This document shows positions 2,289-10,092 of a stretch of 17,717 nt of DNA, one piece after another (the first letter of the stretch is position 1; every line of letters begins with the position of its first letter). The notes under the pieces were generated by a model. The model did not search any database, was not told where the DNA came from, and saw nothing but the letters and a program-made list of their open reading frames with translations. Both the position numbers and the translations under genes were made by a program. The stretch lies in UHGV virus genome UHGV-0179344. One strand, written 5' to 3'. The DNA is from a virus.

Positions 2289-2771
2289 CTACTGGAGGTA
2301 ACGGAGGCCCGGGAAGTTCGGCAGCGTGTAGCGGTAGCGTGGCCATGCGGTATCGAGAATATTCATGTAGCCGGCGGTGATAAGCACCTGAGTTGCCGTC
2401 CAGTACCCTTCTTTAACTGCCATGGTAAATGGCGGAGACGCAGGACCGGAGAGGTCAGTCGAGATATACCGGCGGAATGTCAGGGATGCATCACTGAGGT
2501 TATCCAGCGCGTTGCGGATTGCGGTTGATACCACGCCATCAACATTGCTGATTGCTAATTTCAGATCCTGAGTACCGTCTGCATTACGCGCCGGTAACGC
2601 CACATCTATGGCTGAAGCAAGGAACGTTGCCTGAGCGCCATTATCCAGCGTCACGGTAATGTCATCCCAGCCGCGGGTCAGCCAGTAATTCTGTCCGCCA
2701 ACAGTGATCTGTAGCGTGTCGATGATAACTTCCCCACCGCCGCTGGTATAAAGCCTGTCCAATATTGTCAT
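2289..2771 (-). CDS. Minor tail / tail-tip assembly protein (L-like by position)
   Basis: 160-aa ORF whose ATG overlaps the upstream stop (ATGA); call is by gene order after the tape measure gene, no motif recognised. Confidence 0.5.
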   Translation of the reverse strand: MTILDRLYTSGGGEVIIDTLQITVGGQNYWLTRGWDDITVTLDNGAQATFLASAIDVALPARNADGTQDLKLAISNVDGVVSTAIRNALDNLSDASLTFRRYISTDLSGPASPPFTMAVKEGYWTATQVLITAGYMNILDTAWPRYRYTLPNFPGLRYLQ

Positions 2772-3233: not shown

Positions 3234-6200
3234 TTAGGTCATCCTGTTTCCGCGACCCTGAGCCGCCCTGAGTGATTTACCGAACTGGCCTTTGCCTTCC
3301 AGAGTCTGATTACTAAGCTCGTTCACGAGTTGTTTGTTATTCAGCTTCAGCACTGCATCCATCTCCTGCTGAGTCATACCAGGGCTTTGCGGCATGTTGA
3401 TAATCTGGCTGATGTGGTTTGTTTGTGAACTGCCACCTGAAGAGGACTCATTCTTGCTACCCGTCCCGAAACCTGGCTTTGACAATGTGGCATCCAGCCC
3501 ACCATTGCGAATAGCCTCAAGGTTAGAGACTCCAATGCGCTTGGTTGCCGCAGCGTCAAAGACGTATTCCTGCCCATGCACAACGCCAGAGATAGACCGC
3601 GTCGCCCCATTCCCGGTGTAGCCGCCGGACTGAAACCCAACAGCCGCAGCGCTGGTAATGCTCGAGGTTATAGTGGACATAAGCCCCACAACCTGAGCAA
3701 TGGCAGCAAGGTTTGCCGGAAACGGAAGCCCGGCCAGCGCCTGCCCCATCGCCATCGGCAACTGCAGGGCTGCCTGCGCCAGCGCGAACGCTTTCTGAGT
3801 GATGAACGCCGCTTTGTACATCGCTGACTGTTCGCCAAACATCGTCCCCATAGAATCAGTGATGCTGGAGAACGAGTTTTGCGCGGACTGAGCCTGAGCA
3901 GCGTAAACAGCCATACTCATAGCCTCCTGATTCTGGTTGCCCTGCTGGCGAAGCGCGTCCAGTTGTTGCTGCTTCTTCTGCTCATTCAGGACGCTATTCA
4001 TCGTTATCGCTTTTTCCTGATCACTCAGCCATTTGGCATAATCGCCCTGAGCAGTTTTCAGCTTTTCAATAATCTCCAGTTGCGGGTCAATTTGCAGGCC
4101 GATCATGTTCATGCCCTGACCTGACAAATCATTGTTTGTTGCGCCAGATTTCAACGTCCCACCAGCGGCATTAACACCGGATATTACAGAATCAGGCAGC
4201 ACCGATTTGCTAATCAGGTCGCTCGCTTGTTGCCCTGCGGCTTCCGGCGAAAGCTGTTTAAGCGTCACCATTTTTTGTAGAATCTCCAGGCGTTTCTGGA
4301 GTGTCTCGTTTTGCCTGATCTCTTTCGGTGCGATGTCCTCCTGCATTTTCCGGTAGTCGTCGAGCGTCTTCACCTGCCCCTGCAACGCCTCCTGATTTTT
4401 ATATGCCTGCAGAATTTCTTCAGAACGGGAGAGAATAGACTTCTGGTCGGCGGTTAGTTGCGCCTTAGACTTGAGGTCTGCAATCTGCTGCTCGAACTTA
4501 ACTCTCGCCTGTGTTGCGCTGTTAAGCTTGTCACTGGCATCCAGTTGGGACTGCATGGCTGCAGTCTGCTGATTTATCTGATCAAGTAACCGGGTTGCAG
4601 CATCCTCTGTATAGGCTTTCCCCTTGGGCGCCTTGGGTGTTTTCGGGTCTTTGTAGCGGTCATTTATTTCAGAATATATTCTGTCATATTCTTCTTGAGT
4701 ATATTTCCCGCGATACTTGGATAGCTCAGCCAACTCTTTAGCACGTTGCTGCTGCCGTGTCTGATATTTCTGAGAAAAGGCATCAGCCTTCTGCTGTAGT
4801 TTTATCCCTTCCTGCTGTTTTTTAAGGTATGGGTCATAGGATTCATTAATGGCGTCCTGAGCCATTTTCTCGGACTGCAATGAAGCTAGTCGCGCTTTAG
4901 CAGCATCGACCGCCTTTTGAAGCATGGAAAGGTCGCTAGACTTCCATGCGCCATATGGCCCAGCATATTTTGATTGTCCGGCACTTAAATCAGAGAGTGA
5001 CTTTTGCGCCCTACCCAGTTCGTCCTGAGCTTCTGCTATTTTTTGATCTATAGATTTTTCACGACCTATATCTAGCATGGCATCCCAGGCACCTTTCGCG
5101 GCATCACCCAACCATTTCCATGCCTGCTCCAGTGAGCCTAGGTTACCCTGAATCTGGTCAGCACGCTGCTTCATAGTCGCAGCATACGTATCTGTCGCCA
5201 GTCTCGCAGCCTCTTGCTGATTACCCTCGTCCTGCAACGCCTTAATCTGGTTGTAGGTTGCTAGAGTCAGGAAGTGATATTTGTCGTTCAGTTCTCCGAT
5301 AGCCGCTACCGGGTTTTGTGCGATTTTCTCGAAGTCTGCCACCATGCTATCGACAGATTTATCGGTCGCATCGTTCATTGCGACAACGGCCTCCGTGACA
5401 GTCTGCATTGAACCTGTAGCGATTTTACCACCAGAAACAACACGGTTTAGTGCCTGAGCGGCGGCGGCTGTGGTATTCCCTGTGTTATCTGCGACAGATT
5501 TCGCCATGTCTGCCAATTGCCCGGTGGTTACCCCGGCAATATTCCCGGTCAGAACAAGGGACTTATTGAACTCCTGTTGCTCCTGGCTGCCTTTGTACCA
5601 GGCATATGTGAGAGTACCCACAACTGCGACAAGAGCGCCGATCCCGATAGTCATGGGATTGAGAAAGCCAGTGAGTTTTTTGGCATTCTCAGCATTTTCA
5701 GACAATGAGTTAGCGTTATCTGACAGAGAATCACTGGATTCATCGGCGGCATCTCCGGCTCCCAGTATCTGCTGTTTTATGATTTCGAAAAGATTACCCC
5801 AACCGCCAAAAGAATCGGCGATCTGCGAACCCTGCTGCATGAAGATAGTGAACAAAGGCATACCGCCAGCCAGGCCAACAGCAATATCATTCAGTTGCGC
5901 GGGGAGTAACCGCATGGCATTTTTATACTGACCTGCCGAGATAGCACCATACCGCATTTCATTGCTGACCTGATTGAGACCTTTCTCCGTCAAATCCAGC
6001 TTATTTGAAAGCTCTGCGTGGTATTCAGGAGACAGGAGTCCAGCATCCCTAGCAGCCGATAATGTCGCGCGCTGGCTTTTCAGCCTTTCCAGGGCTGCGC
6101 CAAGAGGGTCTAATTGCGAGCGTATTTGAGAGAAACTAGCCTGGAGTTTTTCATTCTCTCCAGTGAGACCACTAACCCTGTTTCTGGCATCATCAATTTT

Positions 6201-6503
6201 GGCTGCGTAATCTTCAAAACTATCAGCATCTAAGAGGCCTTTAGATTTTGCCCGAGAAAGCTCCTGCTGTTGTTTGTCTAATTTGTTGAGGGCTGCGTTG
6301 ACTGGGTCTATGCTGTCAAGCAAATCCTGAAGCGCTGACTTTTCCTCCTGAGTAGCTTTTGTCACCCTCCCTGCGCTTGCGGCTGCCTTTTGCCCCCACT
6401 CTGTTAAGCCATGAAGAGCACTGGACAAACTGCTGGCATTTTTTTCCGCGCCTGTACTGTCAATGATTATCGCAAGGCGTGATGTTTGTTCAGGCATTAC
6501 CAT
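3234..6503 (-). CDS. Tail tape measure protein
   Basis: 1089 aa, Ala/Gln/Leu/Lys-rich helical sequence with hydrophobic segments (MTIGIGALVAVVGTLTYAWY, FALAQAALQLPMAMGQALAGLPFPANLAAIAQVVGL) and a Gly-rich C-terminus; lies between the chaperone genes and the tail-tip genes. GGAGA precedes the second ATG (6497), which may be the true start. Confidence 0.85.
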   Translation of the reverse strand: MVMPEQTSRLAIIIDSTGAEKNASSLSSALHGLTEWGQKAAASAGRVTKATQEEKSALQDLLDSIDPVNAALNKLDKQQQELSRAKSKGLLDADSFEDYAAKIDDARNRVSGLTGENEKLQASFSQIRSQLDPLGAALERLKSQRATLSAARDAGLLSPEYHAELSNKLDLTEKGLNQVSNEMRYGAISAGQYKNAMRLLPAQLNDIAVGLAGGMPLFTIFMQQGSQIADSFGGWGNLFEIIKQQILGAGDAADESSDSLSDNANSLSENAENAKKLTGFLNPMTIGIGALVAVVGTLTYAWYKGSQEQQEFNKSLVLTGNIAGVTTGQLADMAKSVADNTGNTTAAAAQALNRVVSGGKIATGSMQTVTEAVVAMNDATDKSVDSMVADFEKIAQNPVAAIGELNDKYHFLTLATYNQIKALQDEGNQQEAARLATDTYAATMKQRADQIQGNLGSLEQAWKWLGDAAKGAWDAMLDIGREKSIDQKIAEAQDELGRAQKSLSDLSAGQSKYAGPYGAWKSSDLSMLQKAVDAAKARLASLQSEKMAQDAINESYDPYLKKQQEGIKLQQKADAFSQKYQTRQQQRAKELAELSKYRGKYTQEEYDRIYSEINDRYKDPKTPKAPKGKAYTEDAATRLLDQINQQTAAMQSQLDASDKLNSATQARVKFEQQIADLKSKAQLTADQKSILSRSEEILQAYKNQEALQGQVKTLDDYRKMQEDIAPKEIRQNETLQKRLEILQKMVTLKQLSPEAAGQQASDLISKSVLPDSVISGVNAAGGTLKSGATNNDLSGQGMNMIGLQIDPQLEIIEKLKTAQGDYAKWLSDQEKAITMNSVLNEQKKQQQLDALRQQGNQNQEAMSMAVYAAQAQSAQNSFSSITDSMGTMFGEQSAMYKAAFITQKAFALAQAALQLPMAMGQALAGLPFPANLAAIAQVVGLMSTITSSITSAAAVGFQSGGYTGNGATRSISGVVHGQEYVFDAAATKRIGVSNLEAIRNGGLDATLSKPGFGTGSKNESSSGGSSQTNHISQIINMPQSPGMTQQEMDAVLKLNNKQLVNELSNQTLEGKGQFGKSLRAAQGRGNRMT

Positions 6504-6514
6504 TCTCCGGACAT

Positions 6515-6543
6515 GAAAAAACCCGCCGTAGCGGGTTTTGTTT
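6515..6543 (-). terminator. Intrinsic terminator after the small secreted-protein gene (symmetric, potentially bidirectional)
   Basis: Plus strand aaaaaa-CCCGC-cgta-GCGGG-ttttgttt: a 5-bp GC stem with tetraloop flanked by A-run and T-run; on the minus strand it directly follows the TAA of 6542..6826 and precedes the tape measure RBS. Confidence 0.5.
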
Positions 6544-6826
6544 ATTGGCGAGACTTTTTATCTCTCTCGTGCTCTGAGGCTATGTAATCATAGGTGATTT
6601 TAGCATTGCGGCATTGCTTAGATGTATCCCCGTCAATAAGGCACTCTCCGTGATATCTGGAGATATTTGATGACATGCTAATAGCAGATATGAAAATAGA
6701 CTCGCACCTTTTGTCGCCATTGCACGCCTGGACCCTCATGCTATCCAGAAGTTGAACTTCCTCAATTTGTGCAAAAGAATAACCACATGAAAAAGATAGG
6801 ACCAAACCCAAAATTATTTTTTTCAC
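6542..6826 (-). CDS. Small secreted (periplasmic) cysteine-rich protein, moron gene; function unknown
   Basis: From GTG 6826: MKKIILGLVLSFSCGYSFA followed by QIEE, a classical Sec signal peptide with an AXA-like cleavage site and no lipobox; mature part about 75 aa with 4 Cys. ATG 6847 is an alternative start (gives 101 aa). Local GC is about 40% against about 55% for flanking phage genes. Confidence 0.5.
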   Translation of the reverse strand: MKKIILGLVLSFSCGYSFAQIEEVQLLDSMRVQACNGDKRCESIFISAISMSSNISRYHGECLIDGDTSKQCRNAKITYDYIASEHERDKKSRQ

Positions 6827-6856
6827 TCCACACCCCATCAGTAACATTTACCAACA

Positions 6857-6883
6857 TCGTATCAGGTGCTGATCCCGAATCAA
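6857..6883 (-). promoter_or_regulatory. Candidate sigma70 promoter for the secreted-protein gene
   Basis: On the minus strand TTGATT, 16 nt, TACGAT, ending a few nt upstream of the candidate starts. Weak match, by eye only. Confidence 0.2.
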
Positions 6884-6943
6884 CCTAACGGGGGTGAAAA
6901 TTGCGCTTAGTTGCGGGTAGACCGCCGAAGCGGGCCACGCTTG

Positions 6944-7498
6944 TTATTCAGGTAGAGCTTTGCCAAACCCGGGAAGCCTTATCTGCCCTTGCTGTTCAAT
7001 GCGCTCGATGCGAGCAAGCAGCTCGGGCTTTTTAACTCTGCCCCAGCGATTAAGCAGGCGACCTGACATGCTGGCCACGTCTTTCTCTTTCATGAACTCC
7101 AGCATGACGGCGTTTCGCTCCTCCTCAAACTGGCGCTGACCAATCTGAAGCATTGCGTACATCCAGTTGAAAGCGTTGATGTAAGCAATCTTGATCCGCA
7201 TGGCTTCTTTCTTGGTATAAGACATCACAAGAAGCATTAATCCATCCTTGCGGAGACGGTAGAACTTCTGCGGCTTACCATTCTGTAACTCATTGTTTTT
7301 ATAGCAAAGCTCAAAATTGAGCTTTGTATCAAACTCTGGAGGGCAAGCATCAATAGTCCTTTCAATATCGCGGACTACGTTTTTCGATAACTTGCCAAAT
7401 GCTTTTGCCACCATAAAAGAATCGGTAACCGGATCGTTGTTTGCTACAAAAATCAGATCGCGGAAATCGATGCCGTTAACGACTGTTGGGTAGTTCAT
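6944..7498 (-). CDS. Rha-family phage regulatory protein (N-terminal Rha domain, uncharacterised C-terminal region)
   Basis: The 287-aa track ORF has a junk Arg/Ser/Pro-rich N-terminal 103 aa that overlaps the upstream gene and terminator. From Met104 (ATG 7498, AAGG 8 nt upstream) the sequence VANNDPVTDSFMVAKAFGKLSKNVVRDIERTI ... RKDGLMLLVMSYTKKEAMRIKIAYINAFN matches my memory of the Rha-family N-terminal domain. Low GC (about 35-45%). Confidence 0.65.
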   Translation of the reverse strand: MNYPTVVNGIDFRDLIFVANNDPVTDSFMVAKAFGKLSKNVVRDIERTIDACPPEFDTKLNFELCYKNNELQNGKPQKFYRLRKDGLMLLVMSYTKKEAMRIKIAYINAFNWMYAMLQIGQRQFEEERNAVMLEFMKEKDVASMSGRLLNRWGRVKKPELLARIERIEQQGQIRLPGFGKALPE

Positions 7499-7650
7499 AG
7501 CGTGTACCTTACTTTGAGATGAACCTTTGCCGCATAGGAGATCAGCCCGTCGAGGCTCGCCAGCACTAACTGACATCCTCAAAGGCTCATTCCAAAGGGT
7601 TGGGTTCGACGTGGTTGGATGCGCTGCGGTGCGCGGTGAAATTCGGATAC

Positions 7651-7676
7651 AAAAAAGCCCCGGCGATTGCCGAGGC
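7651..7676 (-). terminator. Intrinsic terminator immediately after the GT chaperone stop
   Basis: Minus-strand RNA GCCUCGGC-AAUC-GCCGGGGC followed by UUUUUU, an 8-bp stem with one G-U pair. The pairing works only for the minus-strand transcript, matching the gene orientation. Confidence 0.5.
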
Positions 7677-8443
7677 TTATTTCTTCTTGCGGTCCTGCTC
7701 CTGCTTTTTGGCCCACTCATCGCGCCATGCGTCATCAAGTGCGAATATCGCAGCTTCAAACTCATCGCGATCGAGCTGTATGGGCCGAACAGACAGGTAT
7801 TGCTCAATGTCTCTTATGCCAAGGGGAAGCGGCGATCCCGTCATGCCTGCGTATGCCCTGGATCGGGAAATGATGGCGTATGCGCTTAGTATCTCGCCCG
7901 TTACGCCGTCTATCTCAGGCTCAGGAACGGGAGGCAACTTTAAACGCTCTCTCTTCCAGCGCTCCTTCTCTCCCTGCTCGCCGCCGTACTGGTTCAGCCA
8001 GGCTTGTGCTTCTGTGACTTTTTTACGGTTTCTTTCTTCTGCTCCGCCTTCCCTTCGGCAATCTCTGCTGCCGCTCCGAGGATTTGCCAGTAAAGCTCCG
8101 GGCGCTGCTTAAGAAGGGCCGCCCCTTTCTCTGGCGTATAGTCGATGGCTAATTCTTTACCATCTACCAGCTCGCCTACACCTTCCCAGCCTTTCAGCAG
8201 GTAATGAGCGCAGTTTTCGATAAGCAGGTCGTCAACTGAGTCGATATCGCCTACAGCAGACAGGTTGAAATCTTTCGTGCCGACCTTGTAGGTGGCATCG
8301 AGCTTTTCAATATGGCGACGTACGAGAGCGTTACGGGAGCGGTAGTGATGATTGTCCACACTGCCTACCTTCAGGCGCAGGCCTTCAATAGGCTCAATCC
8401 AGCGCTCACTGTTCAGGTCGATACGGGGTGCGATAATAATCAT
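7677..8443 (-). CDS. Tail assembly chaperone GT-like fusion made by programmed -1 frameshift (about 256 aa)
   Basis: ORF 7677..7937 is in the -1 frame relative to 7994..8443 and stays open upstream across the slippery site; the track start at 7937 is a TTG, so it has no convincing initiation codon of its own. Confidence 0.45.
7994..8443 (-). CDS. Tail assembly chaperone (lambda G-like)
   Basis: 149-aa acidic protein between the major tail and tape measure genes; the slippery heptamer lies 7 codons before its stop and a -1 frame ORF continues downstream. Confidence 0.6.
   Translation of the reverse strand: MIIIAPRIDLNSERWIEPIEGLRLKVGSVDNHHYRSRNALVRRHIEKLDATYKVGTKDFNLSAVGDIDSVDDLLIENCAHYLLKGWEGVGELVDGKELAIDYTPEKGAALLKQRPELYWQILGAAAEIAEGKAEQKKETVKKSQKHKPG
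8019..8025 (-). other. Programmed -1 ribosomal frameshift slippery heptamer A-AAA-AAG
   Basis: Minus-strand GTA AAA AAG in the G frame (plus-strand cttttttac); A AAA AAG is a well-known efficient -1 slip site in enterobacteria. Confidence 0.45.
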
Positions 8444-8501: not shown

Positions 8502-9674
8502 TTAAGGTGCGGTAACGGTGATTGCGGTTGTGGCGGTATAGGTCCGCGCTTTCGCAGTGATGATTGCTGACCCTTCAGCGACGCGGGTAACCTGCGCCGT
8601 CTTCTGGCCGGTTGAGGCGACCGTTGCCACTGCCGGATCTGATGACGACCATTGCACCGTGTCAGTAGCGCCTGTTGGCGTCAGATTTGCAGTCAGCGTT
8701 ACGGTGGAACCTTCTGCGCCAGAAGAGGTTGCCGGAGTGACTGAGATCGCCGTAGATGGCACCGTAACTGCACGAGTGATGGTTGGCGGAACGTCAGCAC
8801 CGGTAATGTTCAGCTCAACCTGTACGATGTCGGTGTTGCCGCCGTCAGGCCAGTCGCCATCAACCTGAACAGACGGCAGATTAAACGTATAGCTACCCTC
8901 ATCGTTTTCGAGGGTGAAGCTAAACGGCATCGTCTCGCCGGTCATGGTTTTACGCCAGGCGTTATAGGCCTCTTTCGACCAGGACAGCGTAATACTGCCA
9001 GACGGCGTGAACGTAGTCGGGATGTTTGCGCCTGCAAACGGGTTGCCCGTCCCGATACAGCGCTGGGTTTGCAGGTTGTTGTCAAACTGGATGTTGAAAG
9101 AATCGACACAGAAGCCGTCGCCGCCATCAATGCCATTCAGGTTGATGTTCGTCACCTGCTTGAACGAGTAACGCATCTCCCCGGCGTTATCGACAGGGTT
9201 GGTGAAGAAGCTCGTGTCTTCCGCGTTACCATCCCATCCAAGCCCAGCAAAGGTGACGGTCGCTTCAATGTCGCCGTCGTTTGGTACTTCAATCTGGAAC
9301 ACGCCAACCTGAGCGCCGCGGGCGATTGATGCGACACCGATATCGTCAGCGTATGACGCTACAGAGAAGGTGATACGCTGATTCCCCATCGTCAGGACGT
9401 TGTTGACCCACTCGGAACCAAAACACGAAGCGAGAAAGTCATCATGCTGCCCCCAACGGAACTTGGTTACCACGTCACCGCCTACATCGGTAGTGCCGGG
9501 GCTGCGGCCTTGCGCCATTCGGGTGCCGCCAATTTCGTCGTTGTCGATCATGTTTTGGGTTGGACCAAGGCCAAATGAACTGCGCTTCAGCAGATTCCAC
9601 GCGCCTGTGGTCGGCGTGATGCCGGGGGTAGTTTCACGGATATACGCCGTGACGTTCTTTGCGCCTGAGCTCAC
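8502..9674 (-). CDS. Major tail (tube) protein with C-terminal Ig-like domain
   Basis: 390 aa; AAGGAGG 6 nt upstream of GTG 9674; the C-terminal ~100 aa is Thr/Ser/Ala/Val-rich beta-type sequence (TVTLTANLTPTGATDTVQWSSSDPAVATVASTGQ) typical of Big_2-like Ig domains on tail tube proteins. Confidence 0.75.
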   Translation of the reverse strand: MSSGAKNVTAYIRETTPGITPTTGAWNLLKRSSFGLGPTQNMIDNDEIGGTRMAQGRSPGTTDVGGDVVTKFRWGQHDDFLASCFGSEWVNNVLTMGNQRITFSVASYADDIGVASIARGAQVGVFQIEVPNDGDIEATVTFAGLGWDGNAEDTSFFTNPVDNAGEMRYSFKQVTNINLNGIDGGDGFCVDSFNIQFDNNLQTQRCIGTGNPFAGANIPTTFTPSGSITLSWSKEAYNAWRKTMTGETMPFSFTLENDEGSYTFNLPSVQVDGDWPDGGNTDIVQVELNITGADVPPTITRAVTVPSTAISVTPATSSGAEGSTVTLTANLTPTGATDTVQWSSSDPAVATVASTGQKTAQVTRVAEGSAIITAKARTYTATTAITVTAP

Positions 9675-9699: not shown

Positions 9700-10092
9700 C
9701 TATACGGCGCGGTACGGAATTTGAATATTCATTTGTGCCCACCCGTCAGCCTCTCCTGCATCAACAGCGCTTACGGCGAAATAATCTAGCCGACCGTCTG
9801 TTTTGAACTCGAAAAGTTCACGCAGCTTGTCAGCCGTTCTGGTGATGAGCAGAGAGCCCGATCCTGCTGGCACGAAGATTTGGATGATGAGCACTCCAGT
9901 ACGGTGCACTACCGGCCCGTTGCCTATCTCATTAGCTCCAGCAAGGCCGGGAATGTTAGTCAGCCGCGCCCAGATGCTTTTACCAGTAGGGTCATAGGTC
10001 TTGTCGTTGGGGTATCGCACATCACCAGAGGCAATAGCCGTCTGCGCCGTCATGCGTGTGATGACGGCGTTTCTGATTTCTTCGAGGGTCAT
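9700..10092 (-). CDS. Tail terminator / tail completion protein (U-like by position)
   Basis: 130-aa ORF immediately upstream of the major tail gene, coupled to the preceding gene by an ATGA overlap. Confidence 0.45.
   Translation of the reverse strand: MTLEEIRNAVITRMTAQTAIASGDVRYPNDKTYDPTGKSIWARLTNIPGLAGANEIGNGPVVHRTGVLIIQIFVPAGSGSLLITRTADKLRELFEFKTDGRLDYFAVSAVDAGEADGWAQMNIQIPYRAV

Follow-up and report, generated by a model that had tools for sequence, protein, structure and literature searches.

The tail operon described here raises a simple question: does translation of the gene lying between the tail tube and tape measure genes end at its own stop codon, or do some ribosomes move into the overlapping -1 frame to make a longer protein? 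The window (the whole stretch of DNA that was analysed, 17,717 nt) carries on its minus strand, in this order, the genes for the tail terminator and the tail tube, gene G, the T frame and the tape measure gene (Table 1). An earlier note had seen in this locus the conserved frameshift arrangement of tail chaperones, and the position of the gene, its family, the slip site, the switch of frame and the absence of an independent start all agree with that view. We conclude that the locus very probably belongs to a siphovirus-type phage or prophage of Enterobacterales whose tail-assembly-chaperone gene uses a programmed -1 ribosomal frameshift of the lambda G/GT type. Judged by sequence, it possesses all of the defining features of the lambda G/GT arrangement that can be tested in this way.

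Table 1. Features of the tail operon, with their positions in the window and the evidence for each.
Feature	Position	Strand	Evidence or description
Tail terminator	10092..9700	-	Pfam Phage_tail_terminator_5, PHROG 179
Tail tube (major tail) protein, C-terminal Big_2, immediately upstream of G	8502..9674	-	Phage_tube_2 (E = 1e-30), Big_2 (E = 1.5e-8), PHROG 290
Terminator-like hairpin between tube gene and G	8465..8492
Gene G, tail assembly chaperone, 149 aa, frame 0 product	8443..7994	-	ORF, PHROG 313, PF27119, AlphaFold/Foldseek
Slippery heptamer A AAA AAG	8024..8018	-	X XXY YYZ register of G, 7 codons before G stop
T extension, 113 codons in -1 frame plus stop TAA (7679..7677)	7677..8018	-	Open frame, PHROG 1189, codon-position variability
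Terminator-like hairpin overlapping T stop	7655..7678	-	10-bp stem with 7 GC pairs, then T run TTTTGTAT
Rha-family regulator, 184 aa, ATG 7498	7498..6944	-	Pfam Phage_pRha and ORF11CD3, PHROG 518
101-aa ORF with N-terminal signal peptide (...LSFSCGYSFA/QIEE) and several Cys	6847..6542	-
Terminator-like hairpin just upstream of tape-measure ribosome-binding site/start	6539..6518	-
Tape measure protein, 1089 aa, downstream of GT	3234..6503	-	TMP_2 (E = 1e-59), TMP_4, PHROG 24 (E = 4e-214)

Family searches place G among the tail assembly chaperones. The G protein matches PHROG 313, annotated 'Tail assembly chaperone', over profile positions 24-154 of 258 (E = 9.4e-35), and the predicted fusion with T extends this match to positions 24-256 of 258 (E = 1.6e-39). 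Frameshift-extended proteins must therefore be among those from which the family model was built. For the T part, the match is to PHROG 1189 (E = 1e-32), which has 86 positions and no assigned function, and the precomputed Pfam family PF27119 (Phage_YdaY) holds the exact G protein and all of its homologues. Searches of the local Pfam-A copy and of NCBIfam gave no match for G, T or the fusion, and a PDB sequence search with the fusion returned only noise (Pirin, E = 0.4). Megablast against phages and E. coli left both G and T unmatched, the neighbouring Rha gene alone giving matches, and we found nothing relevant on YdaY in the literature. The window does not come from E. coli, and the exact G protein was located on an ENA metagenome contig. 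An AlphaFold model of G, built with 43 homologues, had a mean pLDDT of 77; its best Foldseek matches in BFVD, a set of predicted viral structures, were mostly proteins named as tail assembly or tape-measure chaperones, including long forms of 230-270 aa. The modelled fold of G is shared with known phage tail and tape-measure chaperones.

Gene G starts with an ATG at 8443 and stops with a TGA at 7996..7994 on the minus strand. Its 3′ end reads GAA ACC GTA AAA AAG TCA CAG AAG CAC AAG CCT GGC TGA; in the G frame the site is thus GT[A AAA AAG], followed by exactly 7 sense codons (SQKHKPG) and then the TGA. Reading the minus-strand sequence confirmed both the coordinates given in the earlier note and the distance of 7 codons between the heptamer and the chaperone stop. 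The G and -1 frames overlap by 115 nt, and A AAA AAG is the single in-register heptamer inside the overlap. It should be noted that the bare string AAAAAAG occurs at chance frequency in the window, with 2 copies on both strands taken together vs. 2.27 expected from shuffles. The second copy (7651..7657), on the plus strand, is complementary to the T run that belongs to a terminator-like hairpin, which leaves the site in G as the one AAAAAAG of the coding strand. Since the heptamer alone is at chance level, its significance comes from its register, its position and its conservation in relatives. As to register, only 6 X XXY YYZ heptamers are in phase in the 4713 codons of 17 long minus-strand ORFs. 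The site in G is the only one of the six to end in A AAG, and it is followed by a -1 ORF of 113 codons, vs. 13-40 codons at the other five. The ORF at 2289..2771, a 160-aa gene downstream of the tape measure, has a C CCG GGC in register at 2307..2313 (minus strand), 5 codons before its stop; there, the open -1 frame spans only 29 codons, and this heptamer is probably incidental.

On the minus strand, the -1 frame opens at 8108 and runs to the TAA at 7679..7677, and no stop codon interrupts it between the heptamer and position 7937. It does extend to 7677, as had been claimed, with a length of 113 sense codons in place of the ~115 first estimated. The first T codon after the slip is GTC (8018..8016), which starts with the G of AAG. 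The predicted GT fusion is thus join(8443..8018, 8018..7677), or 142 + 113 = 255 aa, which corrects the earlier figure of ~256 aa. The predicted junction is ...ETVKK/VTEAQAWLNQ...; the peptide previously proposed, ETVKK/KVTEAQ, contained one K too many, the codon read after the slip being GTC.

To see how far the site is conserved, we compared 37 related loci with 60-96% protein identity (4 from GenBank phages, 6 from GTDB genomes and 27 from IMG/VR), which comprise 27 distinct sequences for the heptamer tally; the distant Acinetobacter phage TRS1 was collected in addition. The two-frame arrangement, with an identical frame relation, was present in all 37 loci, from isolates, prophages and metagenomes alike, and the alignment around the slip site is gap-free. 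The heptamer is A AAA AAG, as in the window, in 20 of the 27 distinct sequences and G GGA AAG, phage lambda's own shift site, in 5 more; one or the other thus stands at the homologous position in 25/27. The final AAG of the site is invariant, even in the two exceptions, which account for the 3 loci lacking a canonical heptamer. Erwinia phage Gungnir39 (L004, 3480..3492) has GCA AAG with the frame-0 stop TAA directly after it (1/27), and a Pectobacterium odoriferum prophage has G GGG AAG (1/27; L007 and L029, about 3417..3426, which are one Pectobacterium contig). It is possible that these two sites are single-tRNA (P-site) slip variants. The wobble base of the preceding codon varies together with the site, being A (GTA or ATA) before A AAA AAG and G (GTG) before G GGA AAG, and this co-variation is the constraint expected for re-pairing of the P-site tRNA. 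After the site, the frame-0 tail is 1, 7 or 25 codons long and variable in sequence; the motif EAQxWL is found in the -1 frame of all loci.

The pattern of variability around the site points in the same direction. In the 120 nt upstream, mean column entropy across 30 distinct sequences was 1.17 bits at position 3 of frame 0, vs. 0.40 and 0.35 bits at the other two positions. In the 72 nt downstream, the highest value in the same 30 sequences was found at position 3 of frame -1 (1.06, vs. 0.45 and 0.49). The entropy peak moves from frame 0 to frame -1, and purifying selection therefore switches frame at the heptamer. Selection on the -1 frame already covers the stretch in which the G frame is still open.

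A different reading would be that T is a separate small gene, translated from an independent start (the TTG at 7937 or an ATG 58 codons past the slip), and that the heptamer is incidental. Consistent with this, an 86-aa ORF can be drawn from the TTG, a metagenome gene caller started a 55-aa ORF at the internal ATG, GenBank entries for close relatives annotate G and T as two hypothetical proteins, and PHROG 1189 models the T part as a family of 86 positions. However, the TTG is the first ATG, GTG or TTG in the -1 frame, 27 codons past the slip, and these 27 start-less codons are conserved as protein in that frame (EAQxWL, GGExGEKxxW, REKL), with third-position variability; VTEAQAWLNQYGGEQGEK is an example of the -1 frame peptide encoded upstream of the TTG. 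The TTG itself is missing in two relatives of 95-96% nucleotide identity (L013 and L017), and in the window it is preceded by GAGAGAGCGTTTAAAG, where there is only a weak and distant GA-rich stretch and no good Shine-Dalgarno match. Among the relatives, no T-frame start codon is conserved before codon 58 of 113, and several have no start codon of any kind before that point. The sole widely conserved start is the Met at codon 58, in the middle of the conserved domain. The earlier note was thus right that the -1 frame has no credible start, and we find no downstream ORF with a ribosome-binding site of its own, there being neither a good Shine-Dalgarno sequence nor a conserved start. A separate T gene is highly improbable in the light of these data.

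Two further explanations turn on the run of six A at the site. RNA polymerase might add or drop an A in the A6 run, and transcriptional slippage on runs of A or T is a known route to fusions of this type (PMC5009743). Against this, 5 distinct relatives have G GGA AAG, a classic ribosomal tandem-slip site with no homopolymer, and both the strict X XXY YYZ register and the wobble co-variation fit tRNA re-pairing rather than a polymerase effect. In addition, runs of about 8-9 or more identical bases are usually required before transcriptional slippage becomes productive, and the A6 run is shorter than this; we consider this route extremely unlikely. Homopolymer runs are also prone to indel errors, and one could imagine that an inactivating frameshift or a sequencing error has split a former single ORF of 255 aa, leaving a pseudogene or an artefact. 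One E. coli protein of 240 aa (P0001, NB16F79_39920) does have G and T fused in a single frame. This protein is the exception, however, its single frame being the result of a deletion just upstream of the slip site, whereas the two-frame arrangement is found in every one of the related loci and purifying selection acts in both frames. The probability that the locus is a pseudogene or an artefact is close to negligible. It should be noted that the arrangement in P0001 would yield a GT-like product only, with no free G.

Our preferred interpretation thus remains programmed ribosomal frameshifting at A AAA AAG, and we looked for an RNA element that might stimulate it. The 88 nt downstream of the site folded no better than shuffles (z = 0.66), and a consensus fold of 22 relatives gave -2.2 kcal/mol with zero covarying pairs. 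Upstream, the GGAG closest to the slip site is 17 nt away, which does not fit the spacing effective in dnaX. No stimulatory element having been found, the site would therefore work like that of lambda G/GT rather than that of dnaX; for the same reason, the frequency of frameshifting is probably a few percent.

We propose that most ribosomes would read G to its TGA and produce the 149-aa chaperone. A minority would slip with two tRNA-Lys on AAA AAG (8023..8018), the tRNAs re-pairing one base back on AAA AAA, and would then translate the 113 codons of the -1 frame up to the TAA. The product of slippage, predicted from the arrangement of the two frames, would be the 255-aa GT fusion. If G and GT act as their lambda counterparts do, the tape measure protein would be bound by the G part common to both products, the T part would bring in tail tube protein, and a G:GT ratio fixed by slippage would support tail assembly. 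BLASTP of G and T against lambda G and T showed no similarity, as is usual for this class of proteins, which leaves gene position, family annotation and fold as the basis of the functional analogy.

The region downstream of T differs markedly between relatives. In the window, 1174 nt separate the T stop from the tape measure start (6504..7676, minus strand); the corresponding gap is 34-46 nt in four relatives (L004, L009, L022 and L023) and about 2.1 kb in two others (L006 and L011). The cargo found here across relatives comprises differing Rha/KilA-N-like regulators, lipobox (LxGC) proteins and small membrane proteins, and this junction is a slot within the tail operon whose cargo varies. In the window it holds the Rha-family gene, the only part of the region to match E. 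coli genomes and known phages at ~90% nucleotide identity, and the 101-aa ORF. The latter has no Pfam, PHROG or NCBIfam match and may encode a secreted moron product; a homologue, 78% identical, occupies the same slot in L025. The inserted cargo is set off from GT by the terminator-like hairpin that overlaps the T stop. Together, the three hairpins of Table 1 may bracket the cargo and modulate the relative expression of the tail genes.

These results are of value mainly for the annotation of this enterobacterial lineage (Phage_YdaY, PHROG 313, PHROG 1189). In deposited sequences of the lineage, G and T appear as unrelated 'hypothetical proteins', or T as a truncated ORF of 55-86 aa, and they should be annotated as one joined CDS in which ribosomes slip at A AAA AAG or G GGA AAG. 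Although the closer enterobacterial relatives lack any annotation of the frameshift, the biology is not new. The mechanism is already textbook, and understanding of it is unchanged by one more case; the locus adds one lineage to the established rule, according to which long-tailed phages produce a tail assembly chaperone extended by frameshifting. The alternation of A AAA AAG and G GGA AAG, the two non-canonical sites and the frame-0 tails of 1, 7 or 25 codons could be taken to mean that the YdaY-type chaperone lineage shows how the G:GT ratio is tuned in nature, a reading we think rather unlikely. If it were correct, and the variants differed in frameshift rate yet all supported assembly, the G:GT ratio would be looser than the lambda work suggests; alternatively, single-tRNA slippage beside a stop codon would be a natural alternative route to GT.

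The closest model for this locus is the -1 frameshift of lambda G/GT, reportedly described by Levin, Hendrix and Casjens in 1993 and by Xu, Hendrix and Duda in 2004, 2013 and 2014 (reviewed in PMC5009743). In both cases, the major tail (tube) gene and the gene for the tape measure protein flank two overlapping ORFs, and the stop of G is preceded, by 5 codons in lambda and by 7 in the window, by an X XXY YYZ heptamer that ends in A AAG; the -1 ORF lacks an independent start, and no stimulatory RNA structure has been detected. The heptamers differ, A AAA AAG here vs. G GGA AAG in lambda, although some relatives of the window have G GGA AAG at the homologous position. The two systems also differ downstream, T overlapping H in lambda, whereas a hairpin and 1.17 kb of cargo precede the tape measure gene here. 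The frameshift sets a G:GT ratio of about 30:1 in lambda, where G binds the tape measure protein and T the major tail protein, and low-level frameshifting between G and T is widely conserved in long-tailed dsDNA phages (PMC5009743).

A homologous case is already annotated in a distant relative from a different host family, Acinetobacter phage vB_AbaS_TRS1 (tail assembly chaperone pair TRS1_18 / TRS1_19, NC_031098). Its T is homologous to that of the window (36% identity, tblastn E = 1e-6), the gene order is the same and cargo genes again lie between GT and the tape measure gene. The sole in-register heptamer of the overlap is G GGA AAG, giving VGK/VT where the window would give VKK/VT, and RefSeq has a joined CDS across this homologous site, in contrast to the closer enterobacterial relatives.

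The heptamer of the window is identical to that of the E. coli dnaX gene (tau/gamma), where A AAA AAG is decoded by the single E. coli-type tRNA-Lys, which pairs better with AAA than with AAG (PMC5009743). Shifting in dnaX reaches about 50% with the help of two stimulators, a Shine-Dalgarno-like sequence some 10 nt 5′ of the site and a stem-loop downstream of it; neither has a counterpart here, given the spacing of the GGAG and the lack of a conserved downstream structure. The outcome of the shift is also opposite in the two genes: the shifted product of dnaX is the shorter one, whereas the one predicted here would be the longer.
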